From a virus (taxonomy: Duplodnaviria; Caudoviricetes), in IMG/VR virus record IMGVR_UViG_3300028364_000013: DNA of 64,000 nt; one strand, written 5' to 3'. The notes below the pieces were generated by a model. That model did no database searches and was not told the DNA's origin. It saw only the letters and a list, made by a program, of their open reading frames with translations. Shown one piece after another: positions 5,104 through 21,383 of this stretch (the first letter of the stretch is position 1; every line of letters starts with the position of its first letter). A program made the translations under genes and the position numbers.

Positions 5104-5673
5104 TTATTCTACTCCTAAATCATTTCTCTCTCTATCGAAAAAGTAGTCTCTCGCAACCTGTGAGATGTATTTATTAATCTCCTTTGGCTCAAGTCCAGCG
5201 TCAGCAATAACATCAAGCTCTTCCTTCATAACGTCATTAATTACCATTCTAAGGTAATCACCAAGCTTCGCTCTGTCAACATGCCCTCCGTTGATTAAAT
5301 CAAATGTTTCTGAAAGCATTTGTTCTAAACGCCAATTTGGAGTAACCTTATTTACAGTCTCATGAATTTTATTAAGCTTCTCATTATCAACAACCTTAAG
5401 TGTTTTTACTTTTGACGCACCAGCATGCTTTTCACCTTTGGATTTAAAAATATGTCTTGACCCATCTTCCATTAGACAGGAAAAGACAATCCCTTCACCA
5501 ATCCCTATTTCTTCAAATTCTTTTGCAACAGGACATTCATTTTCAACTTCAAGAGTCATATTAATTATATCATTCTGCACAATATCTGGTCTATTGAAGT
5601 CAATATCCACTTCGTAGGTCTTGAAGTCTTCAATATTATAAATTTTATTTTCTGGTGAACTTAAATTTTTCAT
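5104..5673 (-). CDS. RNA ligase (Rnl2-like), C-terminal part of split gene
   Basis: Nucleotidyltransferase motif IV GEGIVF and motif V FKSKGEKH; continues the 6629-7246 fragment. Confidence 0.75.
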   Translation of the reverse strand: MKNLSSPENKIYNIEDFKTYEVDIDFNRPDIVQNDIINMTLEVENECPVAKEFEEIGIGEGIVFSCLMEDGSRHIFKSKGEKHAGASKVKTLKVVDNEKLNKIHETVNKVTPNWRLEQMLSETFDLINGGHVDRAKLGDYLRMVINDVMKEELDVIADAGLEPKEINKYISQVARDYFFDRERNDLGVE

Positions 5674-5680
5674 GTTTATT

Positions 5681-6577
5681 TTATTTTGTTTTTTTACAAT
5701 ACCAGCCAGTATATTTTAACAAGCCTTTTTTTTCTAACCTTTTTTTGTTTGACCCTAAATTATTATAAATAGGCTCTCCTTTTTCTCTATATGACTTCTT
5801 AAACGCTCCATATGGTAAGTTATTTTTTTTGCAAAATTCTGTAAAATTTTCATTTAAAATGTGATACTTTTTCACATGATTATTATCATATATAAAATAC
5901 TCACTTTTATTAAAATTAACCCCCTTTGTATATCCAACTAACTCTCCAGAAACATATCTTTTATCATCTACTCTAACTTTTAAAACATTACCATTTTTAT
6001 CTCTCACTGTAGCAATTCCAACATTAACTGACATTAGATTGTCGTCATTTGCATATTCTTCTTTACTAACTCTTTTTTTCTCTCCAGTTACATTGTCAAT
6101 AACACTAACTAATCCATTTTTTTCAAAAGTCCTTGTTAGTTGTCCATTTTTAATTCTTTCATCATCATTATTGACTTGAAATGTATTTCCATCTTTATCA
6201 AAAACAGCTATTTTATTTTTTGCAACTCCAAATAAAGAATCATCTTTATCAAAATCTTCTTTTTTTATTTGCCTTCCATTTAAAGAAACATAACCTTTTC
6301 TAAAACCTCCATGACCACCTAACTTTAAATTATAAGTATCATCTCTTTTTATAAAATCTTCATTAACAATTTTTGATTCCATCAATTTCATTTCATCTTC
6401 ACTTTCACAAAAATGTAAAATCCTTTTTTCAAAATTATCAATACCATATTTATTAATAACACGTTTTATATAAAGTCCAGACCCCATATAACCATCATCA
6501 ATATTTATTGTCTTGTGATACCCAACATAAACCATGTTGTTAATCTTATTTTTTATTTCATAAATTGTGTAAAACAT
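5681..6577 (-). CDS. GIY-YIG homing endonuclease
   Basis: [31 protein letters not shown]; own TATTTATA motif (6589-6596). Confidence 0.85.
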
Positions 6578-6628
6578 ATTCTTTTTATTATAAATATCAA
6601 TAAAAAACAGAATACTTACACCAGGCCA

Positions 6629-7246
6629 TTAATTAATTTTTGTCACTACCCAATATGAAGATACTTCCTCATTAAATGGATATACTTTAGCATGGCTAAA
6701 TATAAAAGAGCTTTTCTCTAAATTAGAAATTCCAACATTTTTTTGAATTCCCTTTCCAACCCATTCCATGCATAGCATTATTGTATTTTCTTTTAAATCA
6801 ATATCATTATGTATAGCAAGAGATTTAATCAAATCTATAAAAACTTCTTTTTTTGATTCTGCGAACCAAGCAAAACCTGCATTGTCATTTGTTTCTAATT
6901 TTTTAATTCCCAATATATTTTTTGAAAATTTAGTTTTTTCTCCCTCGTCTTCAACTGTAATATTTGTTTTATCATCAAAAGAAATTTTATATAAAACCTC
7001 TGGAACTGGTGTAATTATTTCATTTTTAGATTGATACCATACCCCTGAAATATCATTATAACAAACTGCTGCAAATGTACCATGTAATTTTATGGTTCCT
7101 TTAAATTTAAGATTAGGTTTTTTAATAGAAGGGTCATATATTGCCTTTCCATTATCATCAAGCCCAGTAAATCCTGCTCTATCGCAAACGCTTTTTACAA
7201 CATTTCTATATTGACCTATTGATGCTGCTGATATAAATTTTTTCAT
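6629..7246 (-). CDS. RNA ligase (Rnl2-like), N-terminal part of split gene
   Basis: Motif I-like KLHGT, QSK, DNAGFA, motif III EWVGKGIQK. Confidence 0.75.
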   Translation of the reverse strand: MKKFISAASIGQYRNVVKSVCDRAGFTGLDDNGKAIYDPSIKKPNLKFKGTIKLHGTFAAVCYNDISGVWYQSKNEIITPVPEVLYKISFDDKTNITVEDEGEKTKFSKNILGIKKLETNDNAGFAWFAESKKEVFIDLIKSLAIHNDIDLKENTIMLCMEWVGKGIQKNVGISNLEKSSFIFSHAKVYPFNEEVSSYWVVTKIN

Positions 7247-9223: not shown

Positions 9224-9295
9224 CCACTTTGGGCAACCACAAGAAAGATAGATGGAGTTATTTATGAAGGGAACATTAATAAAGGAGAAGATTAA
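9200..9295 (+). pseudogene. C-terminal remnant of an HNH-type endonuclease
   Basis: Manual translation VNSLSNLQPLWATTRKIDGVIYEGNINKGED*, resembling the NLQPLW...N..K end of phage HNH proteins. Confidence 0.5.
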
Positions 9296-9669
9296 TCTAA
9301 AATTATAATAGAATCTATTTGTTTTCTGGTCATATTGACTCTTGAAACTTGAATTAAAACCTCATCTCCAAGCCTATAGCTATCTCCATTATTAAAATCG
9401 TTTATACAATAGTTTTCTTCATCAACAAATAGATTATTGGATTTTAGCCAATCTTCTGAAACCATTGTATCACATCCATTTTCTATTATTTCTATAAAAA
9501 CACCAAACGAATTTACACTGGAAATAATTCCTTTAAATTTCTCTCCAATTTTACTCTTCAGAAACTCGCACTGCTTGTACTTAATGGATTCTCTCTGTGC
9601 TTTAGCAGCTTTTTGTTCTTGTTCACTTAGATGTTCGCACATTTGTGATAATTGTGATTTATTATACAT
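9292..9669 (-). CDS. rnr: RNase R C-terminal part (end of RNB domain + S1 domain)
   Basis: CEHLSEQEQKAAKAQRESIKYKQCEFLKSKIGEKFKGIISSVNSFGVFIE; ATG overlaps the integrase stop (TAATG). Confidence 0.85.
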   Translation of the reverse strand: MYNKSQLSQMCEHLSEQEQKAAKAQRESIKYKQCEFLKSKIGEKFKGIISSVNSFGVFIEIIENGCDTMVSEDWLKSNNLFVDEENYCINDFNNGDSYRLGDEVLIQVSRVNMTRKQIDSIIILD

Positions 9670-10472
9670 TATATAGGTAAATTTACTTTATTTAACATTT
9701 TATTTGAGACATGGGTATATATCTCAGTGGTTTTAGATGATGAGTGACCCGCTATCTTCTGAATAATTCTAAGGTCTGTGCCGCTTTCCAATAGATTTGT
9801 GAAAGAAGAATGGCGTAGTGTGTGAATTGAAGAGTTGTTGTCAATATACTTCTTATATATTTTCTGACAACTACCAACTGAATACTGGTCATAATTTTGA
9901 CCATTAAACAAATAAGTTTTTGGCCTATATTCTTTCCAATAATACCTCAACAACTGCAGCACATAGTTCGATAATGGTACAACCCTATCTTTTCTTCCCT
10001 TAGCATTTTTAATATAAATCAACATTCTGATGGAGTCAATATCTTCTATTTTTAAATTAACAACTTCTGATACACGAAGACCAACTGAATACGTTAAAGT
10101 CAATATTGCTTTATGTTTTAAATTTTCAATCTTTGATAACTTATCTTTAATCAATTCTCCATCTATAACTTTTGGTAACTTCTTTTCTTTCTTTGGCCTC
10201 TTAAAAGATACTTTATCATACTTTTTATTGAGCCCAAACTTATAAAGAAATCTAATTGCGTTAATAACTTGATTTTGTTTTGATATAGAAGTGAAATTAT
10301 AATTATTAAGATATAACTGAAAATCTTTTGAATTGAGGTGAATTATTCTTTTATCACCGCACCAAGTAATAAATTGCTTGATGTAATGGGTATAAATGTC
10401 CTTGGTTCTTTCAGAGTAGTTTAAATATATAAACTTTTGTTCACAAATCTTTACAATTTTTTGATTTAACAT
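9669..10472 (-). CDS. Tyrosine recombinase (XerD/IntI-like, SAM-like N-terminus)
   Basis: Intact catalytic set: GLRVSE (R), AKGRKDR (K), HTLRH (HxxR), AGH, TEIYTH (Y). Confidence 0.92.
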   Translation of the reverse strand: MLNQKIVKICEQKFIYLNYSERTKDIYTHYIKQFITWCGDKRIIHLNSKDFQLYLNNYNFTSISKQNQVINAIRFLYKFGLNKKYDKVSFKRPKKEKKLPKVIDGELIKDKLSKIENLKHKAILTLTYSVGLRVSEVVNLKIEDIDSIRMLIYIKNAKGRKDRVVPLSNYVLQLLRYYWKEYRPKTYLFNGQNYDQYSVGSCQKIYKKYIDNNSSIHTLRHSSFTNLLESGTDLRIIQKIAGHSSSKTTEIYTHVSNKMLNKVNLPI

Positions 10473-10489
10473 CTTATATCAATTTAATA

Positions 10490-10531
10490 ATCAATGATTT
10501 ATAAAAAGGTGTTTATATATAGTCGTTATGT
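10490..10531 (+). other. attI-like half site next to the integrase 5' end
   Basis: gtttatatatagtcGTTATGT: R' core with an attC-like arm but no complementary partner arm. Confidence 0.55.
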
Positions 10532-10693
10532 GGCATTATACCACCACATCTTTTTTGTGATTTTGTGTTTTTTAACTAATTCCTTCGTATGTTCTTTAAT
10601 ATCTTCGTAATCTTTTGAAACTTCATTCAATTTTTCACAAAAAGATACGTAACAATCGTATTCATCATCAATTCTACTTATACTACTTCCCAT
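10526..10693 (-). CDS. Cassette 1 ORF, 55 aa (absent from ORF track)
   Basis: MGSSISRIDDEYDCYVSF...KMWWYNAT*; stop lies in the GTTA core. Confidence 0.55.
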   Translation of the reverse strand: MGSSISRIDDEYDCYVSFCEKLNEVSKDYEDIKEHTKELVKKHKITKKMWWYNAT

Positions 10694-10704
10694 AATTTAA
10701 CGCC

Positions 10705-10825
10705 ACATAACAACGTATATAAAACATTGCTTTAGTGGTCTTTTATTTAGTTTATTAATAATTCAAAATTTGTTGTTTATCTGTTAAGTTTCGGTTGGCA
10801 ACGTTTCATATACAAAACGTTGTGG
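10705..10825 (+). repeat. attC-like site 1
   Basis: ACATAAC..gtatataaaacattgc / gcaacgtttcatatac..GTTGTGG. Confidence 0.8.
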
Positions 10826-10830
10826 TGCAT

Positions 10831-11139
10831 TTAGAAAGAAAGTGCTTCACCTGCAACAACACCAGGGTCGCCATATTTACCTTCATCTTCTTCATCAAAG
10901 TTTTGTATAATTTGAAGAGCCTTTTTATACTTCATAAGGCGTTCAGTTAATGTCTGTTTTGCAAGTTCAATCCATTCACCATTTGGCGAGTGCTTGCAAC
11001 ATAAAATTCCGTTAATCACTTTTTCTTGATAATACATAGTTAAAAAACGCACCACAACAATGTATAACAGCAATAGCGGGTTGTAGTGCTTAATTTTAAC
11101 ACCATTGCTTCTAATTAATATTCTGTTTAATTCAATCAT
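10831..11139 (-). CDS. Cassette 2 hypothetical protein
   Basis: Bounded by GTTGTGGTGC / GCACCACAAC. Confidence 0.6.
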   Translation of the reverse strand: MIELNRILIRSNGVKIKHYNPLLLLYIVVVRFLTMYYQEKVINGILCCKHSPNGEWIELAKQTLTERLMKYKKALQIIQNFDEEDEGKYGDPGVVAGEALSF

Positions 11140-11183
11140 TTGTGCTTTCTAATCCGCTACTGCGGTTATACTCAGCGTTATAA
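11052..11183 (+). repeat. attC-like site 2
   Basis: CCACAAC..gtataacagcaatagcgg / ccgctactgcggttatac..GTTATAA. Confidence 0.8.
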
Positions 11184-11387
11184 GTCATTTAGAACTTCAA
11201 TTCTATGTGGTTCATAATCAATAGGAGTTATATAATACAAACAAGGTATGTTTTTACTCAAACCTCTCATTCCAATCATTACGTCAGAATCATTTTTATA
11301 ATCTACTTTGTCAGATAAAAAACGACTTATAACATCAGCTATATGTAACACCTTTCCATCTTTATCAAATATTTCTAATTTATCCAT
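11178..11387 (-). CDS. Cassette 3 hypothetical protein
   Basis: Bounded by GTTATAAGTC / GACTTATAAC; starts in the attC3 loop, stops in the core. Confidence 0.6.
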   Translation of the reverse strand: MDKLEIFDKDGKVLHIADVISRFLSDKVDYKNDSDVMIGMRGLSKNIPCLYYITPIDYEPHRIEVLNDL

Positions 11388-11457
11388 TGTTTCAGTATTT
11401 TAAGTTAGTATAGTAATCTATCAAGGTCGGCACTACACATAGCCCAAGCGGTTAGGT
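11327..11457 (+). repeat. attC-like site 3
   Basis: TTATAAC..gctatatgta / tacacatagc..GTTAGGT. Confidence 0.75.
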
Positions 11458-12057
11458 TTAATATTCACTAAGTTTAATGCTACCTTCAATCTCATTTCCC
11501 CAAGCATCCCATCCTTGTCTAATATTTCTGGAGAACAATTCTAATTTATTTCCTTTAGATACTTTTTCAATAAGTTCATAAAAGAAGTCTGGTTTTTTTG
11601 AATGGCAAGGGTAGCCGTTTACATATTGTCTTTTTTCTTCAAACCAAGTTCCGTTTATTTTTTCATTTACCAATTCATTAACCTTGCCTTTGGTTGCAAA
11701 AATTAAGTATTCAGTAGACACTTTAAAAGTTCCACCCATTCCGCTACCTATTGGTTTTTTACACCATACAAGGGTTGTAGAGTATTTAAAACCCCAAGCC
11801 TTTACAACTTCTTCCGCTTTCATTAAATACTTATTTGTAACCCACAAATACAAATGACAATTATCAGCAGTCAAGTTTTTAATAGGCAGGTTTACTATGT
11901 CTTCAAATTTCATTGTGTTATAAGGCAAGTCTGCAGACTTATCGCTTTTTGGATTAAACACTTGTACCCCATTTTCTTTTTTGTAACCACCGCTTAATGG
12001 TCTCCCTGCTTTTTGCTCCCAAGCTGGGTCTGCATATATTATATTGTATTTATTCAT
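11458..12057 (-). CDS. Cassette 4: MT-A70 family methyltransferase
   Basis: IIYADPAW, CHLYLWVT, WGFKY, HSKKP, LELFSR, GWDAWGNE. Confidence 0.88.
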   Translation of the reverse strand: MNKYNIIYADPAWEQKAGRPLSGGYKKENGVQVFNPKSDKSADLPYNTMKFEDIVNLPIKNLTADNCHLYLWVTNKYLMKAEEVVKAWGFKYSTTLVWCKKPIGSGMGGTFKVSTEYLIFATKGKVNELVNEKINGTWFEEKRQYVNGYPCHSKKPDFFYELIEKVSKGNKLELFSRNIRQGWDAWGNEIEGSIKLSEY

Positions 12058-12087
12058 ATTTATTCTTTAAAATCCGTTCATACTAAA

Positions 12088-12141
12088 ACCTAACAATGTG
12101 TAAAACGGCATTAAAACGACCGTTTACACTAGGCGTTGTAA
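12088..12141 (+). repeat. attC-like site 4 (54 bp)
   Basis: ACCTAAC..gtgtaaaacgg / ccgtttacac..GTTGTAA, one extrahelical A. Confidence 0.8.
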
Positions 12142-12156
12142 GTAATTGGTTTTTAC

Positions 12157-12381
12157 CTACTGCGTATCTGCATAAGCACATTCATTACATTTTCTTTCCA
12201 CATATACAGCAGTGTTTTCGCAACTATCACAAACCAACTCCGTACAACACCGTGTATAAATAATAGCTTGCTTATTTCTGTCTTTTAAGATTACGTAAGC
12301 TTCATCGCTTATTTTGTTATCTTGGTGCAACCTATCAAGTGTAAATCCTGTTTGGATAAGTTGGTTATTTGTTTCGTTCAT
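12157..12381 (-). CDS. Cassette 5 hypothetical protein (Cys-rich C-terminus)
   Basis: Starts inside the attC5 loop. Confidence 0.55.
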   Translation of the reverse strand: MNETNNQLIQTGFTLDRLHQDNKISDEAYVILKDRNKQAIIYTRCCTELVCDSCENTAVYVERKCNECAYADTQ

Positions 12382-12437
12382 TTTTATAAAATTTAGTTGT
12401 TATTAATCGCTACTATTCATACACAAATCAGTTGTAG
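12242..12437 (+). repeat. attC-like site 5
   Basis: GTACAAC..gtgtataaataatagc / gctactattcatacac..GTTGTAG. Confidence 0.75.
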
Positions 12438-12443
12438 TGAATG

Positions 12444-12635
12444 CTACAATCCTACCTTTGATTTAAGTTCAGATATTGACATCCAGCTTTTAATTGATTT
12501 TGGTTGAACCCAATCGCTTTCCATGTCTGCTTTGAACATTCCATCTTTGTAATAGGCAAATTCAAGTACTCCACTAATATGTTCAACCAACACCCTTGTC
12601 ATATTTTCGGGTAATTCTAAATCTGTATTTTTCAT
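12444..12635 (-). CDS. Cassette 6 hypothetical protein
   Basis: Bounded by GTTGTAGTGAATGC / GCACTCACTACAAC (13/14 complementary). Confidence 0.6.
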   Translation of the reverse strand: MKNTDLELPENMTRVLVEHISGVLEFAYYKDGMFKADMESDWVQPKSIKSWMSISELKSKVGL

Positions 12636-12670
12636 TTCAATTATACATTTAAGTTAATAATCCGCACTCA

Positions 12671-12735
12671 CTACAACACTTTGTATAGTGCATAGCTCGT
12701 GCCTCACTACGACACCATACAAGATGCCGTTGTAG
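12671..12735 (+). repeat. attC-like site 6 (65 bp)
   Basis: CTACAAC..ttgtatagtg / caccatacaa..GTTGTAG. Confidence 0.78.
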
Positions 12736-12747
12736 GTAATAAATTTA

Positions 12748-12930
12748 CTACTCTTGTGGTTCAAGAATGTCATAAGCATCTCTTATACATCCTTTTAATG
12801 TTGTGGCAACTGTTTGCATCCTAAAAGCACCGTTGTAATCTTCGGCTTTTATCTTATCATCAATTAAGCCTTGTAAATGTTGCCACTTGGTTTGCCATTC
12901 TTCAATCTGTTGTTTCAATTTATCTTCCAT
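12748..12930 (-). CDS. Cassette 7 hypothetical protein
   Basis: Bounded by GTTGTAGGT / ACCTACAAC. Confidence 0.6.
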   Translation of the reverse strand: MEDKLKQQIEEWQTKWQHLQGLIDDKIKAEDYNGAFRMQTVATTLKGCIRDAYDILEPQE

Positions 12931-12972
12931 TATATTTTTAAGTTTAGTGTTTCAATTCTGCAGGATTACTAC

Positions 12973-13028
12973 CTACAACAAAGGCTATAAAGCCATACAA
13001 GTACAGGCTCATAGCCTAGACATTATAT
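12973..13028 (+). repeat. attC-like site 7 (core variant ATT)
   Basis: CTACAAC..ggctataaagcc / ggctcatagcc..ATTATAT. Confidence 0.7.
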
Positions 13029-13038
13029 GCAATAAAAA

Positions 13039-13314
13039 TTACTTACGTCTTGGGTCTTCATCACACCATAGTTTATAACAATTAACTTTTCGCTTTATTA
13101 ACCGTGCTTTGTCTTGGATTTCTTCAAGGTTGGTAGCTGTTAATATAGCATCTAATGACACACTTCCACCACTACTGTCATCTAAATATCTTCCAAGCCA
13201 AACACTACCTTCGTCCGCTAATTCGTGCATTTTTGCATAATCAGGGAAACATTCTTTTACTTCTTTAATTAATTTTTGTGAGTACATAATCGTAATTTTA
13301 AAAGCATATAACAA
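13039..13314 (-). CDS. Cassette 8 hypothetical protein
   Basis: Bounded by (A)TTATATGC / GCATATAAC; true start may be internal (MYSQKLIK). Confidence 0.6.
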   Translation of the reverse strand: MLYAFKITIMYSQKLIKEVKECFPDYAKMHELADEGSVWLGRYLDDSSGGSVSLDAILTATNLEEIQDKARLIKRKVNCYKLWCDEDPRRK

Positions 13315-13434
13315 CGTGTATATTTTATTGCTACATACCGCCTATCTAAAGGCTTGTTAATATTTATTCAGTTCTGTTCTTATTTAAAGTTTATTGATAC
13401 CTATACGCAACAAAGCATACACAAACCGTTACCA
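13306..13434 (+). repeat. attC-like site 8
   Basis: ATATAAC..gtgtatattttattgc / gcaacaaagcatacac..GTTACCA. Confidence 0.75.
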
Positions 13435-13438
13435 AACA

Positions 13439-13729
13439 TTAAATAACTTGGTACATCATTCCTGCAACTTGTGGCCCGTGTGTGTCATACGCTTTATCAT
13501 AAGCATCATTACTATCTTCTGCCTCTATTTCAAACGTCCATCCGTCTTTCCCTTCTGATTCAAACCAGAATAAATAACGTTTGGTAACACTATCTATAGG
13601 TAATGTCTGCCCTAGCTTTAGTGCTTGTAAGCGAAATTCAAATTCGTTTAAGAACTCTTGGTCTGTTGGTGTTCCTCCGATACCCTCCATTCCTTTTACT
13701 ATGTCAATTACTTTTTCTGATATATTCAT
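13439..13729 (-). CDS. Cassette 9 hypothetical protein
   Basis: Bounded by GTTACCAAAC / GTTTGGTAAC; N-terminal half encoded in the attC9 loop. Confidence 0.6.
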   Translation of the reverse strand: MNISEKVIDIVKGMEGIGGTPTDQEFLNEFEFRLQALKLGQTLPIDSVTKRYLFWFESEGKDGWTFEIEAEDSNDAYDKAYDTHGPQVAGMMYQVI

Positions 13730-13786
13730 GATTAATTTTTAGTTATTTAAGTCGGGCAAAAAATACCCATAGATTTAACGTTAGCA
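13582..13786 (+). repeat. attC-like site 9 (205 bp)
   Basis: TGGTAAC..tctataggta / tacccataga..GTTAGCA. Confidence 0.7.
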
Positions 13787-13787
13787 T

Positions 13788-14036
13788 TCATAGTATTTGC
13801 CTTTCATCTATTGGTTTTTGGCATTCAATACAGTAAGGCGTACCATTTTCATCATTATCTCTACCTTTAGCCTGTGAGCATCGGCAAAATAACGAAATGC
13901 TAACATCAGGTATGGAGCAGTTTTTTACTCGCTCCTGGTCACATTCATTCCACACCTTCAACAGTGCTTGTTGTACGCTTGTACTATTGGGATAAGCTGT
14001 TTCAGCCTGTATCTCTTTTATTCTTTCAGTTGTCAT
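13788..14036 (-). CDS. Cassette 10 hypothetical protein (Zn-finger-like C-terminus)
   Basis: Bounded by GTTAGCATT / AATGCTAAC; CRC...CIEC. Confidence 0.6.
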   Translation of the reverse strand: MTTERIKEIQAETAYPNSTSVQQALLKVWNECDQERVKNCSIPDVSISLFCRCSQAKGRDNDENGTPYCIECQKPIDERQIL

Positions 14037-14096
14037 ACAATAAAGTTTAGTGTTTCAAATCCGTAAAAAATCCGCTCCATACCCCTAGCGTTATAT
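13898..14096 (+). repeat. attC-like site 10
   Basis: TGCTAAC..ggtatggagc / gctccatacc..GTTATAT. Confidence 0.8.
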
Positions 14097-14161
14097 GCAA
14101 TGCTACGTTATCACTTCGTATTAAGTTTCATCATAACATTCCCTTTGTTTTTCCACCGAAC

Positions 14162-14725
14162 TTATAATTCTAAATCCATATTAAATGGTTTAAAATTATT
14201 ATCTTCAATCATTTTCCTAACTCTTGGATGAAATTTATAAAATATTGAATTTGGTAAATCAATATCCCAATCCATCACGTCTATTAATTTGTTAATAATT
14301 CTACCTTGGAATATTTCATCTACATTTTCTATAAATAATTCATCAAAAGGAAAATGGACATTTCCAAATGTTGAATACATTTCAACCCAATCTAATATTT
14401 CTTTTTCTAATCTACTGTAATCATATCTAACTAAATCTTTTACTAATAGTTCGTTTTCACTATGTGCTATTATCTGACCACCATAGTCTAATAATTCTTT
14501 TCTATAAAGTTTCTTATGATTATCAGATATTTCTTTATACATTTTCTCAGGCATCTCACTACCATTTTCTATGTTTTTATTAACAAATGTTAAAAACTCT
14601 TTATCATCCCATAAATCATCTGAACTTGGTTCATAATTCATATCCTTTAAATTGCCATCTTGGTCAATATATGCTTCATTCAAATATTCACGTATAGTCG
14701 TTGCTATAAATTTTCTTAATTCCAT
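14162..14725 (-). CDS. Cassette 11 hypothetical protein with own TATTTATA motif
   Basis: MELRKFIATTIREYLNE N-terminus; cassette bounded by GTTATATGC / GCATATAAC. Confidence 0.7.
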   Translation of the reverse strand: MELRKFIATTIREYLNEAYIDQDGNLKDMNYEPSSDDLWDDKEFLTFVNKNIENGSEMPEKMYKEISDNHKKLYRKELLDYGGQIIAHSENELLVKDLVRYDYSRLEKEILDWVEMYSTFGNVHFPFDELFIENVDEIFQGRIINKLIDVMDWDIDLPNSIFYKFHPRVRKMIEDNNFKPFNMDLEL

Positions 14726-14841
14726 AATAATAAATAGTTTAATCTATATATAAATAATCACTTTTTAATATTCCACCCACAAAAATAAAACAAAAAGGCT
14801 TCGTTCTTCGTATCAGCATTTGTGGTTAAAATCCGCACAGC

Positions 14842-14859
14842 ATATAACAAGTGTTAGTT
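14842..14859 (+). repeat. Collapsed attC-like site 11
   Basis: ATATAAC-aagt-GTTAGTT: both cores present, stem and loop missing. Confidence 0.6.
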
Positions 14860-15111
14860 GCAATGCTGTGGGTTTTTGCAACCTTCGTAGTGTTCCATAT
14901 CGCTTCCGTAACCGTTATACCACAAAACATATTCGCAATTTCTAACTTTTACTATTTGTAAGTCTGCCTTCCATTTAGGGTTGCTTATGTACATTTCTCT
15001 GTTATCTTTTTCTTGCTCAATATTTTCTTTGGTTTCATCTCCACAAGAAGAAAGCACAGCAACTAACACAAAATATAGCGTATAACTTAATTTCGTTCTT
15101 AAATTTTTCAT
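14854..15111 (-). CDS. Cassette 12 putative lipoprotein
   Basis: Hydrophobic signal ending VAVLSS-C; bounded by GTTAGTTGC / GCAACTAAC. Confidence 0.6.
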   Translation of the reverse strand: MKNLRTKLSYTLYFVLVAVLSSCGDETKENIEQEKDNREMYISNPKWKADLQIVKVRNCEYVLWYNGYGSDMEHYEGCKNPQHCN

Positions 15112-15192
15112 CTGTTCTGTTTTTAAAGTTTATTAATTATTAAAAGTTTTGTGCTGTTTTTGTCGTTACACACCATATTCAACACGTTATCG
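15061..15192 (+). repeat. attC-like site 12
   Basis: AACTAAC..aatatagcgtataac / gttacacaccatatt..GTTATCG. Confidence 0.7.
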
Positions 15193-15204
15193 GCAAATGC
15201 TACA

Positions 15205-15378
15205 TTACTTCTTCGTATCAATATTTACGTTAGAAGTTTTTATTTTTTGCCCACGCTCTTTGATTAACTTACGTATTTCAGTTTCACATAAGTTTTTACG
15301 ACTTCTACCATCTTCTTTAGCAATAGCATCAAGAATATCAGTTTCATCTCTATCTAAATGTATTTCTATTCTTACCAT
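15205..15378 (-). CDS. Cassette 13 RHH/Arc-like protein, 57 aa (absent from ORF track)
   Basis: MVRIEIHLDRDETDILDAIAKEDGRSRKNLCETEIRKLIKE; TAATG coupling to the upstream ORF. Confidence 0.65.
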   Translation of the reverse strand: MVRIEIHLDRDETDILDAIAKEDGRSRKNLCETEIRKLIKERGQKIKTSNVNIDTKK

Positions 15379-15695
15379 TAATCAATCATTTTAATTGATG
15401 AGTATGCAATGTTCCAAACCTCTCCATTTTCTCTTTTACATTTAACTTTCTTTGGATTTAGTTTTAAAACTTCCCAAATTTCACCTTTAAATTTATCACT
15501 AGCAACGGAAACTATGTCTCCTACTTTCAAATCGGTTTTTGATTTTTCTTTCCGTTCCAATTTAATTTGATATTCTTGTTCACGAATAAGTCTATTTGCA
15601 TCAGCAATTACTTTGTTCAATTCATCTAATGATAATCCAGTCAAGTCTATTTTACTTTCAGTATTTATCGTTGCCAGTTCTTGTAGTAAATTCAT
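15378..15695 (-). CDS. Cassette 13 hypothetical protein (coiled-coil + SH3/KOW-like)
   Basis: DLKVGDIVSV...IWEVLKLNPKKVKC; own TAAGTTTG promoter at 15731-15738. Confidence 0.6.
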   Translation of the reverse strand: MNLLQELATINTESKIDLTGLSLDELNKVIADANRLIREQEYQIKLERKEKSKTDLKVGDIVSVASDKFKGEIWEVLKLNPKKVKCKRENGEVWNIAYSSIKMID

Positions 15696-15851
15696 CTTAT
15701 TTTGTTTTAGTGTTATAGTTAATCATACGACAAACTTACGATAAAGTTTCGTATAAACCAAATCTTTTTCAATTATTTTTCTTCCGACCCTAAAAAATAA
15801 AAACTTATTTAGTGCTTCGTATTGAAATTAAGATAGATAATCCGCATCAGC

Positions 15852-15916
15852 CGATAACATTTTGTATATTTCAGTTTGCGAAAAGCAAACCGATAACATA
15901 CAATTTGCCGTTACCC
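15852..15916 (+). repeat. attC-like site 13 (65 bp)
   Basis: CGATAAC..ttgtatatttcagtttgc / gcaaaccgataacatacaa..GTTACCC. Confidence 0.78.
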
Positions 15917-15922
15917 TTAATA

Positions 15923-16420
15923 CTAGACATCTGTTTTCATAAAAGACATCCAATGCGTATTTGAGCGTTTACCTGATTTGTGTCCAAATAATGGTTGATG
16001 GCCAATGGCATTTAATATTTGAGTAACTGTAATTTGGGTTTCGTTCCATTTGAATATTAAAGTCCCATAAGGCTCTAAAACTCGCATACATTCATTAAAT
16101 CCAGTTTTTATATCTAATTCCCAAGTAGGTAATAAAACACCATACTTTTTAGCCATCCAACTGTCTTTTCCTAACTTATTTAAGTGTGGTGGGTCAAATA
16201 CTACCATTTTGAAAGTATTGTCTTTAAATGGCATATCTCTAAAATCAACCTCAATATCAGGTTTAACCTCTATTGTTCTAATTCCAGTATTTACGCTACT
16301 ATCTTTTACTTCTACGGTTTCCGTTCTTATGTCAGCAAATAAAACATTAGGGTTTGTTTTGTCAAACCAGAACATTCTACTTCCGCAACAAGCATCTAAT
16401 ATTTTTTTATCTGTATTCAT
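15923..16420 (-). CDS. Cassette 14: class I SAM-dependent (putative DNA) methyltransferase
   Basis: ILDACCGSRMFWF, VVFDPPHL, GTLIFKW. Confidence 0.85.
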   Translation of the reverse strand: MNTDKKILDACCGSRMFWFDKTNPNVLFADIRTETVEVKDSSVNTGIRTIEVKPDIEVDFRDMPFKDNTFKMVVFDPPHLNKLGKDSWMAKKYGVLLPTWELDIKTGFNECMRVLEPYGTLIFKWNETQITVTQILNAIGHQPLFGHKSGKRSNTHWMSFMKTDV

Positions 16421-16454
16421 TATTCAAATTTCGTTTTTAATCAACCCGTACTAA

Positions 16455-16521
16455 GGGTAACAATTTGTATAATGCATAATTTGTAAAAACAAATTCCGAC
16501 ACCATACAATAGCCGTTAGCG
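16455..16521 (+). repeat. attC-like site 14 (67 bp)
   Basis: GGGTAAC..ttgtataatg / caccatacaa..GTTAGCG. Confidence 0.78.
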
Positions 16522-16528
16522 GTAATGG

Positions 16529-16759
16529 TCAGACGTTGTATCTAACAGCAGATGCCATTGCTATCAACAATAGTATTCCTGTTATAATAGCACCATCTGT
16601 TCCGAACATTTGTCCTATACAAAACATTACACCACCTGCCAATATTGTTGATACAAACATATACCATCCAGTTCCACTTTTAGGCTTTAATAAACCACTA
16701 CCGCTAACAAAGGGTTTATTAAATGGCTCAGTTTCGTTTTTCAAATTATCTTTTTCCAT
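16529..16759 (-). CDS. Cassette 15 two-TM membrane protein
   Basis: Bounded by GTTAGCGGTAATGG / CCACTACCGCTAAC (16695-16708); its attC lacks a right arm. Confidence 0.6.
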   Translation of the reverse strand: MEKDNLKNETEPFNKPFVSGSGLLKPKSGTGWYMFVSTILAGGVMFCIGQMFGTDGAIITGILLLIAMASAVRYNV

Positions 16760-16859
16760 ATTTTAAAGTTTTATGATTCTAATTAATTTTTGTGCGTAAA
16801 GTAACATTAAGTTAATTATCATAAAATATGATGAAAGTATATCTAAAAAAATAAATAAG

Positions 16860-18422
16860 CTATTGTCCGCCATTCATATAATACCACAATAATCTATGAC
16901 TCAAAATATCGCTGTATCTTCTTATTGGTGATGTAAAGTGACTATAGTGCTTGAATCCGAGTCCATAGTGACCAATTATTTGAGTTGAATAAACTGCTTT
17001 CGACATTGAGCGAATAGCTAACGTTGAAATCATTGCTTCCTCACCACTTCCAGACGCTTTCTTCAACATCTCGTTGAGAGATGCTTTGGTAGCTTCCATG
17101 CTTCCTGAAGTATTAAAGTGATAACCGAACTGAGATACGAATAAACTTAACTCATGCAGTTTCTCTTCACTTGGAAGGTCGTGTGTTCTATATACGAATG
17201 GCTTGGTAAGTCCGTGTGCATAAGTTGCAACATACTTGTTAGCCAATAACATGTACTCTTCAATAAGTTGATGAGCATCTGCAGATTCATGAAAGAAAAC
17301 ATCTATTGGAACATTGTCCTCATCAAGAACAAAGTTTGGCTCTCTTCTGTTGAAGGTGACCGCTCCATCTTTAAATCTTTTCTTTCTAACTTTCTTTGCA
17401 ATGCCATTCAATATTTTCACACAATCGAATACTCCCATCCCTGGTGGAACGCTTTCTATTCTGTCGGCAGTTCCTTCTATAATCTCTTGCGCTTCTTCAT
17501 ACGTCAATCTACAATCAGAGTTGATTACAGTCTTCTTGAAATTGTGCTTAACAACTTCTCCATCTGGAGACATCTGAAAGATAACCGAGAATGTCAGTTT
17601 TTCTTCATTTGGTCGTAAGCTACAGATTCCATTAGAAAGCCTCTCTGGGAGCATTGGAATACATCTATCAACAAGATAAACTGAAGTCGCTCTTCTAAAT
17701 GCTTCCTTATCCAATTCACTTCCTGGTCTAACATAATGTGTTACATCAGCAATGTGAACTCCAATCTCGTAATTCCCATTATCCAATTTCTTGAATGATA
17801 TTGCATCATCAAAATCTTTTGCACTGTCTGGGTCAATGGTGATTGTCAAATCTCCACGCATATCTCTACGCTTAAGAATCTCCTTTTCAGAAATCTCAAC
17901 TGGAATGTCTTCAGCTTCTTTCATAACTGCATCAGAGAAATCATAATCAATATTATGCTTAAACATAATGCTGTTCATTTCAGTCTCGTGAGTTTCAGCT
18001 GCGCCAATCACTTTTGTGACAATACCTTTTGGGCTTTTGTCCTTCTTGTGCCATCGGTGCAATTTAACAACCACAACCTCTCCATCCTTAGCGCCATTTA
18101 GGTGCTCCATTGGAACATAGAAATCTACTGGCATCTTACCTCCAGAAGTTCTAACAAAAGCAAATCCCTTTTCTTCATTGATGTCAATTACACCAGAGAA
18201 TTCAGTTTTGCTTCTATCTTCAACTCTTTCTACTATACCTTGTTCTCCAGTACCTTTTCCGCTTTCGTCTTTAACAATTGACACTGTGACCTTATCTCCA
18301 TGAAGAGCTTGGCCTGTATTTTTTTTGTGAATGAACAAATCATCATTGCCTTCTAATATTAAGTAAGCATGACCGTTTCTTATAAACTCTATTGTTCCTT
18401 CAGTTTGTTTTAATTTTTTCAT
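16860..18422 (-). CDS. rnr: RNase R N-terminal part (cold-shock domains + RNB catalytic domain)
   Basis: ALHGDKV, TIDPDSAKDFDDAIS (catalytic Asp), HIADV, IEEYMLLAN, HFTSPIRRY; stops at YYMNGGQ* before the S1 domain. Confidence 0.92.
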   Translation of the reverse strand: MKKLKQTEGTIEFIRNGHAYLILEGNDDLFIHKKNTGQALHGDKVTVSIVKDESGKGTGEQGIVERVEDRSKTEFSGVIDINEEKGFAFVRTSGGKMPVDFYVPMEHLNGAKDGEVVVVKLHRWHKKDKSPKGIVTKVIGAAETHETEMNSIMFKHNIDYDFSDAVMKEAEDIPVEISEKEILKRRDMRGDLTITIDPDSAKDFDDAISFKKLDNGNYEIGVHIADVTHYVRPGSELDKEAFRRATSVYLVDRCIPMLPERLSNGICSLRPNEEKLTFSVIFQMSPDGEVVKHNFKKTVINSDCRLTYEEAQEIIEGTADRIESVPPGMGVFDCVKILNGIAKKVRKKRFKDGAVTFNRREPNFVLDEDNVPIDVFFHESADAHQLIEEYMLLANKYVATYAHGLTKPFVYRTHDLPSEEKLHELSLFVSQFGYHFNTSGSMEATKASLNEMLKKASGSGEEAMISTLAIRSMSKAVYSTQIIGHYGLGFKHYSHFTSPIRRYSDILSHRLLWYYMNGGQ

Positions 18423-18425
18423 GTT

Positions 18426-18686
18426 TTATTTTCTATTTCTACAGTCAACTTCTGTTGCTGTTATCACTTGATGCATAGAAACCCATACATCATTTCCCGC
18501 CTCGTCATTACCTCTTATGTAACCATCATGCACGCTTCCTCCATAAACCCACATTGCACTTCCATCCACAAGTTGGACATCAAGCCTTGTTTTACAGTCA
18601 TAAGAGTTTGTTGTTTTACCGACACCCTCACAAGAATTTAATACAAATGTAAGCAATGCAAAGCAGATAATAAGTAAATTTTTCAT
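18426..18686 (-). CDS. Putative lipoprotein
   Basis: Signal ending FVLNS-C. Confidence 0.6.
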   Translation of the reverse strand: MKNLLIICFALLTFVLNSCEGVGKTTNSYDCKTRLDVQLVDGSAMWVYGGSVHDGYIRGNDEAGNDVWVSMHQVITATEVDCRNRK

Positions 18687-18708
18687 TTTTTATTTTTTGA
18701 TTCTTTTG

Positions 18709-18737
18709 TTTATACGTTTTTTATGGAAGAATGTTCC
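18709..18737 (-). promoter_or_regulatory. ECF-type promoter upstream of lipoprotein-rnr-cassette run
   Basis: GGAAC-N16-CGTATAA on the minus strand. Confidence 0.65.
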
Positions 18738-18745
18738 TAAAACCT

Positions 18746-20317
18746 TTAATAATTTATATTCTCTGGTCTCATTTGAGGGAAAAATAACACATCTTGAATT
18801 GATTTTTGTTCAGTTAAAATCATTACCAATCTATCAATTCCAATACCAAGACCTGCAGTAGGAGGCATCCCATATTCCAATGCTCTCAAGAAATCTTCAT
18901 CCATACCCATAGCTTCATCATCACCTGCTCCAGCAAGACGAAGTTGCTCTTCAAACCTTTCTCTCTGGTCAATTGGGTCATTAAGCTCACTATAAGCATT
19001 AGCAACTTCTTTACCATTGATTACAAGTTCAAATCTTTCAACTATGCCAGCGTCTGTTCTATGCTTTTTAGCAAGCGGAGACATCTCAACTGGATAATCG
19101 TATACAAACGTTGGTTGAATCAATTTAGGCTCAACAAACTCTCCGAAAATTTCATCAAGAAGCTTCGCTCTACCCATAGAGTTATCAACATGGATTTCAT
19201 GACCAGCAAGAAATACTCTAAGCTCATTATCTGTCATGCTCATTGCTTGACATCCAGAATATCTTTCAATCGCATCAAAGAACTTTATTTTTTCGAATTC
19301 TCCAAAGAAGCTAATTTTATTCTCTCCGAACACAGCTTCAACATCATCAACAATTGAGAATGCTGCTTTTTTTACAATCTGCTCACAAAAGTCCATCATC
19401 CACATATAATCTCTATTGGCTGCGTACAACTCAACTTGAGTAAACTCTGGATTATGGAACCTGCTCATTCCTTCGTTTCTGAAATCTTTAGCAAATTCAT
19501 ACACTCTTTCGAATCCTCCAACAATCAACCTCTTAAGATATAGCTCATTGGCAATTCTCAAATAAAGAGGAATGTCCAATTTATTGTGATGTGTCATAAA
19601 AGGCTTTGCGGTTGCACCACCATGAATTGGCTGTAAAACTGGAGTCTCAACTTCCATGAAAAATTCTTCATCCAATACTTCACGTATTGTTCGAATTATT
19701 CGTGTTCTATCTCTAAATACTTTTTTTGAATCTGGGTTTACCACAAGGTCAACATATCTTTGACGATACTTCATCTCTTGGTTCTCAAAAGAATCGTGAA
19801 CATTTCCTTCCTCATCTTTCTTAACAGTAGGAAGAGGTTTTAAAGACTTAGAAAGTATTGTAAACTTTGTTGCACGAATAGTTAGTTCACCAGTTTGAGT
19901 GACAAACATTTTACCTTCAACACCAACAAAGTCACCAAGGTCAACCAGTTTCTTAAAAACTGTATTGTACATTGTTTTGTCTTCGTCTGGACAAAGCTCG
20001 TCTCTTGAGATGAACACTTGCATTCTTCTTTCTGAATCATCTTGTAATTTAAAGAAAGATGCTTTTCCCATTATGTTCTTACTCATTAGCCTTCCAGACA
20101 ACTTAACAGTCCTTCCCATGTGCTCAATTTGAAGTTCTGTCGAAAAATGTTGAAGCGTATCAAACATTTCCCAAACACTTGTACAATCATATCTTATACG
20201 AGCTCCATTCTCAACATCATTGATAAACGGCTCAGCTGGATAAGGATTAATACCCAGGTCAATCATCGCTTGAAGATGCTCTCGTCTTACTATTTCTTGT
20301 TCTGATAATTTACGCAT
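18746..20317 (-). CDS. lysS: Lysyl-tRNA synthetase (class II)
   Basis: OB anticodon domain, YRQRYVDL, FMEVETPVL, YLRIANELYLKRL, FRNEG, GLGIGIDRL. Confidence 0.96.
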   Translation of the reverse strand: MRKLSEQEIVRREHLQAMIDLGINPYPAEPFINDVENGARIRYDCTSVWEMFDTLQHFSTELQIEHMGRTVKLSGRLMSKNIMGKASFFKLQDDSERRMQVFISRDELCPDEDKTMYNTVFKKLVDLGDFVGVEGKMFVTQTGELTIRATKFTILSKSLKPLPTVKKDEEGNVHDSFENQEMKYRQRYVDLVVNPDSKKVFRDRTRIIRTIREVLDEEFFMEVETPVLQPIHGGATAKPFMTHHNKLDIPLYLRIANELYLKRLIVGGFERVYEFAKDFRNEGMSRFHNPEFTQVELYAANRDYMWMMDFCEQIVKKAAFSIVDDVEAVFGENKISFFGEFEKIKFFDAIERYSGCQAMSMTDNELRVFLAGHEIHVDNSMGRAKLLDEIFGEFVEPKLIQPTFVYDYPVEMSPLAKKHRTDAGIVERFELVINGKEVANAYSELNDPIDQRERFEEQLRLAGAGDDEAMGMDEDFLRALEYGMPPTAGLGIGIDRLVMILTEQKSIQDVLFFPQMRPENINY

Positions 20318-20318
20318 T

Positions 20319-20513
20319 TTAATCTTTTTTATTTAGATTTGACAATCTAAGGTTTTCAAGTTTAAGTTTTTTAATCTCTTCAAACTGCTCTTCAATTTGC
20401 TCTTCAGCAACATCAAGTGCTTGGTATACAAATTTTACAGTCTGATATGGCAATCGCATCTCAGGCTTCAATAACTTTCTTGAATTAATAGTTTCGTCCA
20501 TAATTACATTCAT
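20319..20513 (-). CDS. Hypothetical protein
   Basis: 64-aa ORF in operon-like run. Confidence 0.5.
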   Translation of the reverse strand: MNVIMDETINSRKLLKPEMRLPYQTVKFVYQALDVAEEQIEEQFEEIKKLKLENLRLSNLNKKD

Positions 20514-20516
20514 AAC

Positions 20517-21383
20517 TTATTCTTTTAATTGACCTTGCATTGCTGCGTAATACTCTAAACAATTTTGACCTGGAGAAAGTCCAGATACTTGTCCATCTCC
20601 AGTTTCAATAATCATCCACATGCCGTTTTCCATCTCAGCTATGTCAATCGTGAAGAAGTTGCTATCAATTTCGCAAGCTATCTCTTCAACAAAATCAATT
20701 GTTTCATCATTTGGAGTGCTGTGTTCTACTTTAACGTTAGAGTTTTGAGAACTTGAGATTAATCGTCTGTCATAAAAGAATAATCTATATTCATTTACAT
20801 TTTCTCCATATTTTTTCAAGTCAACAAACTCTTTAAAAACAAGACCTTCACTAAACAACTCTCCTCTATGTTCAACAAACTCCTCTACTTTCTTGAAGAG
20901 GTCTTCTCCACTGATTCCAGTATTCATTCTGAACAAGCCTGGGACTCCTTTTGCAGACTTAACAAAATCTTTCATTAAGAAGTCTTTATCTCCAAAAAAT
21001 TCAGAAATGTCTTGAAGAATGTCAGCATCCCACTCTTTAATGAAAATAGCTTTTGACGTGTGGTCTTTTGTATAATCATAAGACTCTGGGAAGTGATGAC
21101 AATTTTTGTATTGTTCTGGTGTATTCACAAGAACGTAGCCCAGTTCTTCAAGAGTTTTATATAACTCTTCGTACTGAGTTAGGTTTAACATCCAACTCCT
21201 TAATACAAGAGATGTTTTATCATCTATTTGAAATATGTTAGATTTAAACTCTCCTCTAACAAACTCATCATGACTAAACAAAAAACAATCATGACCCTGC
21301 AGTTTTGCAGCGTGATGTTCCTCTATGTAACAGTCATCAACTTTTTTATTGTCAAGTTCATGACATGGGAATAATATCTTCAT
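20517..21383 (-). CDS. ATP-grasp domain protein (DUF4343/R2K-like)
   Basis: MKDFVKSAK, EYRLFF, FFTIDIAE, IIETGDGQVSG. Confidence 0.75.
   Translation of the reverse strand: MKILFPCHELDNKKVDDCYIEEHHAAKLQGHDCFLFSHDEFVRGEFKSNIFQIDDKTSLVLRSWMLNLTQYEELYKTLEELGYVLVNTPEQYKNCHHFPESYDYTKDHTSKAIFIKEWDADILQDISEFFGDKDFLMKDFVKSAKGVPGLFRMNTGISGEDLFKKVEEFVEHRGELFSEGLVFKEFVDLKKYGENVNEYRLFFYDRRLISSSQNSNVKVEHSTPNDETIDFVEEIACEIDSNFFTIDIAEMENGMWMIIETGDGQVSGLSPGQNCLEYYAAMQGQLKE

Follow-up and report, generated by a model that had tools for sequence, protein, structure and literature searches.

A stretch of viral DNA of 64,000 nucleotides (IMG/VR record IMGVR_UViG_3300028364_000013, hereafter the window) carries a tyrosine recombinase gene, an attI-like site and an array of 15 gene cassettes, all located between the two parts of a split RNase R gene. 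The G+C content of the 64-kb window was about 30% and its gene content was phage-like. Profile scans identified a fragment of a terminase large subunit, RecD2, a sigma factor, Thg1, aminoacyl-tRNA synthetases, and HNH and GIY-YIG homing endonucleases among the window proteins. The DNA originated from lake-water metagenomes, and an identical integrase protein was encoded on a contig of 364 kb. A megablast search of GenBank phages with the region as query gave no match. All of the genes between 9.3 and 20.3 kb were on the minus strand. The N-terminal fragment of RNase R (16860..18422, minus strand, 520 amino acids (aa)) contained the CSD1, CSD2 and RNB domains (Pfam RNB, 3e-110) and matched positions 64-578 of 711 of the NCBIfam RNase_R model, and the C-terminal fragment with the S1 domain (9292..9669, minus strand, 125 aa) matched positions 590-706. 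Both fragments are intact open reading frames (ORFs). The ATG of the S1 fragment overlapped the stop codon of the integrase gene (TAATG), and translation of this ORF is probably coupled to that of the recombinase.

The recombinase (9669..10472, minus strand, 267 aa) contained the Pfam Phage_integrase domain (PF00589, 1.7e-32) and a SAM-like domain (SAM_4). Alignment with IntI1 and XerD showed a complete catalytic set (R, K, HxxR, H and Y). The best NCBIfam model was XerA_Arch/integron integrase with 169.5 bits (cut-off 220). The integron integrase model TIGR02249 gave 152.6 bits (cut-off 265) in two pieces, with the IntI insert skipped, and the XerD and XerC models gave 145.7 and 140.9 bits, under their cut-offs of 329.6 and 335, respectively. 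The closest solved structure was Pyrococcus XerA (4a8e), and the recombinase resembled the Xer proteins XerC/XerD and XerA in size and domain layout. The Vibrio cholerae integrase IntIA (PDB 2a3v) gave a two-piece match with about 48 aa missing between the pieces, residues 175-259 of 2a3v being represented by merely 37 residues in the recombinase. In the alignment, about 32 + 10 extra residues were present in IntI1 alone and in none of the phage, Bacteroidota and Xer proteins. Judged by its sequence, the recombinase is not a classical IntI, and as it is without the IntI-specific insertion, its recognition of hairpins must differ in detail from that of classical integrons. In a tree of 31 proteins, IntI1 and the enzymes of Bacteroidota and phages formed one group, to which the XerC/D proteins of E. 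coli and flavobacteria did not belong (support 100/99). The phage recombinases, including those of phages Ingeline and Freya, formed their own clade (99/96). Three contigs from bacterial assemblies, two of them from metagenome-assembled genomes, fell inside this clade, and the enzymes of chromosomal arrays fell outside it. An SPLD-like C-terminal tail was common to IntI1 and the bacterial members only.

The attI-like site (10473..10534, plus strand) consisted of TATATA..GTC followed by G|TTATGTGGC, with the G at 10525, and is the putative insertion point of the cassettes. Its core GTTATGTGGC, at 10525, was 53 nt upstream of the integrase ATG and stood just behind TATATATAGTC. The motif (TATATA..ATA) was kept in relatives, 45-60 nt upstream of the integrase ATG. 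Fourteen imperfect palindromic sites with lengths of 60-211 nt were identified, all of them on the plus strand, and one was collapsed (14839-14862). An earlier note, made from the sequence alone, had already reported the intact recombinase, the half site and the palindromes, and all of these were confirmed at their positions. On the plus strand, the site plan was R''(..AAC)-3 nt-L''...L'-5/6 nt-R'(GTT..), and the last R'' (TACCGCTAAC) was at 16699-16708. The left half-site motif AAC-N2-5-GTRTA occurred 12 times on the plus strand of the 64 kb, nine times within the array, and several R''/L'' boxes were located within ORFs. Past the last R'' (16709-16872), a distal half-site was represented by just a weak 11-nt pairing at chance level, and no clear one was found before the RNase R stop codon.

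To score the match between cores, the 7 bases that follow GTT at one end of a cassette were compared with the reverse-complemented 7 bases that precede AAC at its opposite end. For the R' and R'' of the same cassette, the mean match was 6.47 of these 7 variable bases, and the match was perfect in 8 of the 15 cassettes. For the 210 other R'/R'' pairings, the mean was 2.50 of 7, and three pairings reached 6. The statement in the earlier note that each left core is the reverse complement of its own right core was thus borne out for the array in general, but the cores of cassette 5 paired at just 5/7 and the R' of site 7 (ATTATATGC) opened with A, not G. When the sites were rebuilt as in an excised circle and both strands were folded, as that note had recommended, the predicted structures contained an R stem of 9-10 bp and an L stem, separated by a 3x5 internal loop whose asymmetry is that of the 3-nt and 5/6-nt spacers. 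The fold of the minus (gene-sense) strand was more stable in 9 of the 14 reconstituted sites.

Two covariance models were used to describe the sites: R1, a model of a short-site family, and R2, built from 14 sites of the chromosomal arrays of Gaetbulibacter, Tamlana, Aquimarina and Maribacter only. The cassettes are given on the plus strand, and all of their ORFs are on the minus strand. Cassette 1 (10526..10819) contained an ORF of 55 aa (10526..10693) and site S1 (10702-10828), with the cores GTTATGTGGC/GCCACATAAC matching at 7/7 and an R2 E-value of 1.1e-11. Cassette 2 (10820..11177) contained ORF 10831..11139, or a shorter form starting at 11039, and site S2 (11049-11186) with an L stem of 21 nt (cores 7/7; R2 E 1.4e-8). 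The ORF of cassette 3 (11178..11451) encoded 69 aa (11178..11387) and started within the loop of S3 (11324-11460; cores 7/7; R2 E 9e-5). Cassette 4 (11452..12135) encoded an MT-A70 adenine methyltransferase (11458..12057, Pfam 1.6e-28) and had the short site S4 (12085-12144) with the loop CATTAAAACGA and cores matching at 6/7. S4 was matched by R1 with an E-value of 5.5e-9, S4 being in the R1 training set, and by R2 with 3.5e-4. In cassette 5 (12136..12431), the N-terminal half of the 74-aa ORF (12157..12381) was contained in the loop of S5 (12239-12440; R2 E 2.3e-8). Cassettes 6 (12432..12729) and 7 (12730..13022) contained ORFs of 63 aa (12444..12635) and 60 aa (12748..12930) and sites S6 (12668-12738) and S7 (12970-13031), respectively, both with 7/7 cores. 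S6 was matched by R1 at E 0.043 and by R2 at 3.7e-5, and S7 by R2 at 1.7e-3. Cassette 8 (13023..13428) contained ORF 13039..13314 and S8 (13303-13437), with an R2 E-value of 8.1e-14.

The 96-aa ORF of cassette 9 (13429..13780; ORF 13439..13729) spanned the R'' (13579-13588) of S9 (13579-13789; cores 7/7). This ORF looks chimeric: residues 52-96 matched the 59-aa family phrog_37256, the N-terminal 47 codons were in the S9 loop, and the N-terminal part was found alone in a contig of run X5, broken exactly at AA|C of R''. Cassette 10 (13781..14090) contained an 82-aa ORF (13788..14036) and S10 (13895-14099) with an L stem of 18 nt. Cassette 11 (14091..14853) encoded a protein of 187 aa that matched no family (14162..14725) and ended in the collapsed site, R'' GCATATAAC, 4 nt and R' GTTAGTTGC, with 6/7 cores and a weak R1 E-value of 2.3. 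Cassette 12 (14854..15186) contained an 85-aa ORF (14854..15111) and S13 (15058-15195; cores 6/7; R2 E 4.6e-5). Cassette 13 (15187..15910) contained two overlapping ORFs, 15378..15695 and an RHH protein (15205..15378, Pfam RHH_1 1.5e-4), with S14 (15849-15919; cores 6/7; R1 E 0.98). Cassette 14 (15911..16515) encoded a DNA methyltransferase (15923..16420, phrog_954 4.4e-76) and carried S15 (16452-16524; cores 7/7; R1 E 0.2). Cassette 15, together with the distal end of the array (16516..16859), contained the ORF of a membrane protein (16529..16759) and the last R'' described above (cores 7/7). The module AAT[GA]CTAC..(G)TGCTTCG[TA]AT, which is the 3' end of a gene-sense unit, opened many cassettes after R' (12431-12470, 14090-14130 and 15186-15230) and many first cassettes of relatives. 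The sequence CTTCGTAT recurred at about 14808 and 15815.

The cargo therefore comprised two DNA methyltransferases, the RHH protein with its partner ORF, orphans, and small proteins of membrane or secreted type. The methyltransferases and the RHH protein named in the earlier note were recovered by the MT-A70, phrog_954 and RHH_1 matches. In the window, every cassette ORF was antisense to its site and pointed to the integrase gene, and in 44 loci 300 ORFs were on the integrase strand versus 57 on the other. The genes of cassettes 3, 5, 9, 10 and 12 started in the loop of their own site and read through L'' and R''. Cassette genes in this orientation are out of reach of a Pc-type promoter located at attI. 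They share the direction of the neighbouring phage genes, so their expression is probably by read-through or by cassette-internal signals.

A scan of viral contigs found 107 stretches encoding a relative of the recombinase, of which 80 loci (given here by L numbers) were kept, with integrases 59-82% identical to that of the window on contigs of up to 362 kb. Metagenomes contained more than 120 recombinase clusters at about 80% identity, and those with a name were called XerD. With R1 (AAC-AAA-10 bp stem-CATTAAAACGA-10 bp stem-TCRGAC-GTT), 116 matches at E<=0.01 were obtained in 74 loci. None of them shared the strand of the integrase gene, and almost all were upstream of that gene. A structural scan of the relatives gave 0.64 sites per kb upstream on the opposite strand versus 0.09 downstream; the simple helix scanner was noisy in AT-rich DNA and was used for strand and side enrichment only. 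Compensatory changes were found in 8 of the 10 stem pairs of the short-site family, a figure that is biased upward because the training sites were chosen by the helix scan. The 11-nt loop CATTAAAACGA was invariant in this family. Straight after attI in L011, L014, L018 and L048, 'empty' hairpins of the form GTTA-N5-CATTAAAACGA-N5'-TAAC were observed, which look like gene-less cassettes. In L028, four further model matches (18551-20588) formed a cluster on the downstream side of the integrase, at a distance of 8-10 kb; they share the strand of the upstream array and may be a second array.

R1 recognised only part of the varied sites of the window (S6, S15 and S14 at E 0.04-1) and was therefore replaced by R2. 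On the 64 kb, R2 found nine window sites at full length, on the plus strand and within 10.7-15.2 kb, with E-values from 8e-14 to 2e-3, and no match at E<=0.01 outside the array. The phage sites are thus members of the site family of Flavobacteriaceae chromosomes, and this recognition also points to Flavobacteriaceae as the host group. No Rfam family was matched in a scan of the whole window, the published attC covariance model not being part of Rfam.

Comparison of natural genomes showed that the arrays turn over. Essentially none of the window cargo was found in the 80 phage loci or in about 90 bacterial loci, and seven sets of near-identical phages (L047/48, L050/51, L052/53/55, L041/42, L067/68, L009/12 and L035/37) diverged right after the GTTA of attI. 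The earlier note had named a fixed cassette order in relatives as evidence that would count against integron activity, and the order was not fixed. Cassettes with 96-100% identity were present in otherwise different arrays (L062/L076, L012/L050, L018/L067, L026/L077, L046/L059 and L050/L051). In most of these pairs the similarity began at (C)GTTA behind unlike sites, and in three pairs it stopped right past the GTTA of the distal site of the cassette itself, which indicates a mobile unit of the form TT...gene...site...G, as in integrons. In L012 and L024, whose backbones are 97% identical, the same two cassettes were adjacent in one locus and 1 kb apart in the other, and one of them abutted attI in L024 only.

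Junctions of the same kind were found for the window itself when contigs of four other runs were compared. A contig of run X6 contained cassette 8 from TTATATGC onward, preceded by a foreign L'-spacer-G, which places the junction at G|TT. Four contigs of this run tracked S1 up to GTT (10821) and then diverged, and another entered cassette 11 at GTTATATGC (14090) from a foreign flank. Joints with sides of 20-32 nt (10723>15167, 13270>16503, 12447>12648 and 15254>15746) were left unused because real deletions and look-alike site halves are indistinguishable there. In the cultured Polaribacter phages Freya_6, Freya_8 and Freya_9, whose integrase is 37% identical to that of the window, the sequences likewise part directly behind a GTT that is about 50 nt upstream of the integrase gene. 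The difference between Freya_8 and Freya_9 is a single cassette of 296 nt, present at attI in Freya_8 only, with the cores GTTAGCAAC/GTTGCTAAC.

Site architecture, own-core pairing, G|TT borders, divergence at attI and cassettes common to different arrays were thus all observed in natural genomes, and it is highly probable on these comparisons that the block is an integron-like platform for gene capture, carried by phages and native to those of Bacteroidota. In such a platform, the recombinase would be the catalyst and folded single strands the substrate. The enzyme would cut and join at G|TT, and recombination of two neighbouring sites would free a circular cassette. In the circle, the R' and R'' of the cassette would come together as opposite arms of a single hairpin site, which would account for their complementarity, and the circle would re-enter at attI beside the recombinase gene.

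Integrons are defined by IntI. As in classical integrons (IntI1/attI1/attC of class 1 and V. cholerae IntIA), the recombinase gene adjoins attI and then the cassette array, and the sites have the order R''(..AAC)-L''...L'-R'(GTT..) with the longer spacer at the R' side. The G|TT crossover, the differing new cassettes at attI and the complementarity of the first core to the inverse core of its own site are likewise shared. Unlike in classical integrons, the phage recombinase is without the IntI-specific insertion and about 48 aa shorter than IntIA at that place, the cassette genes are antisense to the site and many of them start within its loop, the complementary cores have a length of 10 nt instead of 7 nt, and the platform is found on jumbo phages of lytic type and inside a gene. 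The integron reading of the earlier note was upheld in the core pairing, the G|TT borders and the divergence at attI, and had to be amended with regard to the absent classical IntI, the antisense genes, the location in a split RNase R gene and the presence of the same system in Bacteroidota chromosomes.

Several observations weigh against this interpretation. The IntI-specific insertion (about 35-50 aa, near patch III) is absent from the recombinase, the scores are under the cut-offs of TIGR02249 and NF040815, and the tree contains only one IntI, on a long branch, as a plasmid search for other IntI classes yielded IntI1 alone. The insertion is regarded as essential for attC recombination, and Cury et al. 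(2016) judged recombinases near attC without the insert to be 'not IntI' (PMC4889954). Some site loops contain coding sequence and reach about 190 nt, and these may fail to fold in the living cell. In the assembled contigs compared, no circle, empty site or excision junction was found, and several joints were ambiguous. Breakpoints at 12244, 13588 and 16459 were at AA|C of R'' and not at R', and in the L012/L024 group the variant of the L'-R' spacer went with the right-hand cassette. Both of these fit homologous exchange in near-identical sites or top-strand events, and homologous exchange in sites 98-100% identical, or occasional top-strand events, may be additional routes.

The L012/L024 finding bears on the alternative that the palindromes serve as regulatory punctuation, be it as terminators, as processing sites or as promoter-hairpin units, that shuffling occurs by homologous recombination and that the recombinase is otherwise engaged. 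The sites in L012/L024 are 50-nt repeats with 98-100% identity whose spacer variants follow the right-hand cassette as crossovers within the repeat predict, a hairpin is located just upstream of each gene, and the conserved 11-nt loop CATTAAAACGA suggests an added sequence-specific role. Such an arrangement is said to exist in T4-type phages, where, reportedly according to Arbiol et al. in 2010, small accessory genes are bounded by repeated promoter/stem-loop units (PeSL) and shuffled between related phages. PeSL reportedly have no dedicated recombinase, attI or cassette-specific complementary cores, and their exchange is thought to be homologous. Unlike with PeSL, the recombinase is here tied to arrays in more than 70 loci, the cores are cassette-specific, and shared cassettes with G|TT borders stand behind unlike sites. 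The complementary cores would be left unexplained by homologous recombination, and divergence starts exactly at attI, which is no repeat of the sites. The strand relative to the recombinase gene is fixed in all 116 R1 matches, nearly all of them upstream. Nor are the sites terminator-like: a terminator scan found 3 terminator-like sites versus 4.0 expected, none at a palindrome, so that the explanation as ordinary terminators, which the earlier note had listed as a possible refutation, fails. A scan for sigma-70-type promoters, whose coverage does not extend to Bacteroidota promoters, showed no excess. Overall, regulatory punctuation is an improbable explanation of the array.

Arrays with the same site plan and own-cassette pairing were also found on bacterial chromosomes. 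Bacteroidota genomes encoded recombinases 38-58% identical to that of the window, and arrays adjoined such recombinases in Gaetbulibacter, Tamlana, Aquimarina, Maribacter and Marinoscillum. The array-associated enzymes were 38-44% identical and likewise without the IntI insertion, and no classical IntI was found in these five genomes. Like the phage recombinase, these enzymes scored under the NCBIfam cut-offs and matched the integron integrase model in two pieces on either side of the insert. In the chromosomal arrays, the genes are sense and followed by the site, whereas in the phage arrays the genes are antisense to the site. The recombinase was divergent from the array in L125, and upstream of it in the same direction in L158. 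The Flavobacteriaceae and Cytophagales arrays (L158:8897-16813, L125:1-7300, L152, L102 and L161) had at least 8 cassettes and sites of 117-190 nt. A Chryseobacterium plasmid (NZ_CP041688.1, L173) encoded a 44% identical recombinase (5743-6786) that is annotated by NCBI as 'site-specific tyrosine recombinase/integron integrase'. In the literature, no description of the Bacteroidota chromosomal arrays as integrons was found, and IntegronFinder 2.0 detected almost no integrons in Bacteroidetes (PMC9024848).

The membership of the window sites in the Flavobacteriaceae chromosomal family would also be expected if a fragment of a host chromosomal integron had been acquired passively and had no role in the phage. 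Captures of this kind are on record: in the survey of 10,705 phage genomes by Qi et al. (2023), the finds were limited to integrons of host type, carried by temperate phages, and small integrase-less clusters of attC sites (PMC9892861), including those of Vibrio phages and attC clusters in virulent phages. The attC-type sites, the small cassettes and the frequent methyltransferases are features that these clusters (CALIN) and integron fragments, one of them in a Polaribacter phage, have in common with the window (PMC9892861). However, they have a classical IntI, or 2-4 sites without an integrase, whereas here a phage-specific clade of recombinases, up to 15 cassettes and turnover at an attI of its own were found. 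The enzymes of jumbo and cultured phages form a clade that leaves the chromosomal array enzymes outside, related recombinases extend across more than 100 viral contigs, phage genes are antisense to the site and bacterial ones sense, and no cargo was in common with the sampled bacterial arrays. The arrays of near-identical phages, moreover, turn over at the phage's own attI. Passive capture is accordingly very unlikely.

With respect to the split RNase R gene, the viral contigs contained one close locus only, L081, which encodes an intact RNase R of 650 aa between the same neighbours and has no block. The N-terminal fragment was 73% identical to this protein and the S1 fragment aligned to its end. 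The gene was split cleanly, without loss of length, NGGQ*/MYNKSQL of the window being aligned to KGKNGDVSKL of L081. In three other lake samples, contigs matched the integrase from 9681 on and then continued in non-rnr sequence, indicating a close relative of the integrase in another genomic context. All of these would suit an integrative island of 7.2 kb, in which the main task of the recombinase would be insertion and excision of the block as one unit, with RNase R restored on excision as with skin in Bacillus, but this is hardly probable: no repeats or att-like pair were found at the two ends of the block, a simple G|TT-type crossover gave no in-frame solution for an uninterrupted rnr, ten other loci had apparently whole genes of various kinds, not fragments, after the recombinase, so that the split is particular to this phage, and turnover at the level of single cassettes would not be explained. 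The association with arrays instead of a single dif site, and the position outside XerC/D in the tree, also distinguish the recombinase from XerC/XerD-dif.

Returning to the gene-capture platform, a broader proposal is made more tentatively and with somewhat less than even confidence. An old branch of integrons without the insertion may be common to Bacteroidota chromosomes and phages, in which hairpins would be read without the I2 helix. With one site family, cassettes could pass between virus and host, and the inverted gene polarity would serve the turnover of accessory or anti-defence genes during infection. The 'integrases' taken as marks of lysogeny in flavobacterial phages would then be cassette recombinases. 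If so, the enzymes without the insertion make up a large clade linked to arrays with cassette turnover in more than 100 viral contigs, jumbo phages included, and in Bacteroidota chromosomes (five here), and gene capture of the integron type reaches viruses and a major phylum. It would also have to be asked anew how an enzyme without the I2 helix reads hairpin sites. No paper describing such a platform was found in the literature on phage integrons. Bartlau et al. took the integrases of Freya and Ingeline as signs of a temperate lifestyle, with integrons unmentioned (PMC8776804), and calls of the type 'integrase means temperate' in flavophage genomics would need re-reading. The Polaribacter phages are cultured and one cassette apart, so that the platform is directly testable.

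Elsewhere in the window, the ORF at 28179-29081 (300 aa) aligned to profiles of the terminase large subunit over their middle part only, as in one profile of 807 positions, where the match covered 256-463, and this terminase gene may likewise be split or fragmentary. A GIY-YIG endonuclease gene (5681..6577) was located between the ORFs 6629..7246 and 5104..5673. The ORFs at 2112-3092, 45833-46762 and 48662-49750 encoded two HNH homing endonucleases of phrog_559, paralogous to each other, and a further enzyme of the GIY-YIG type, and the phage genome is rich in selfish endonucleases.

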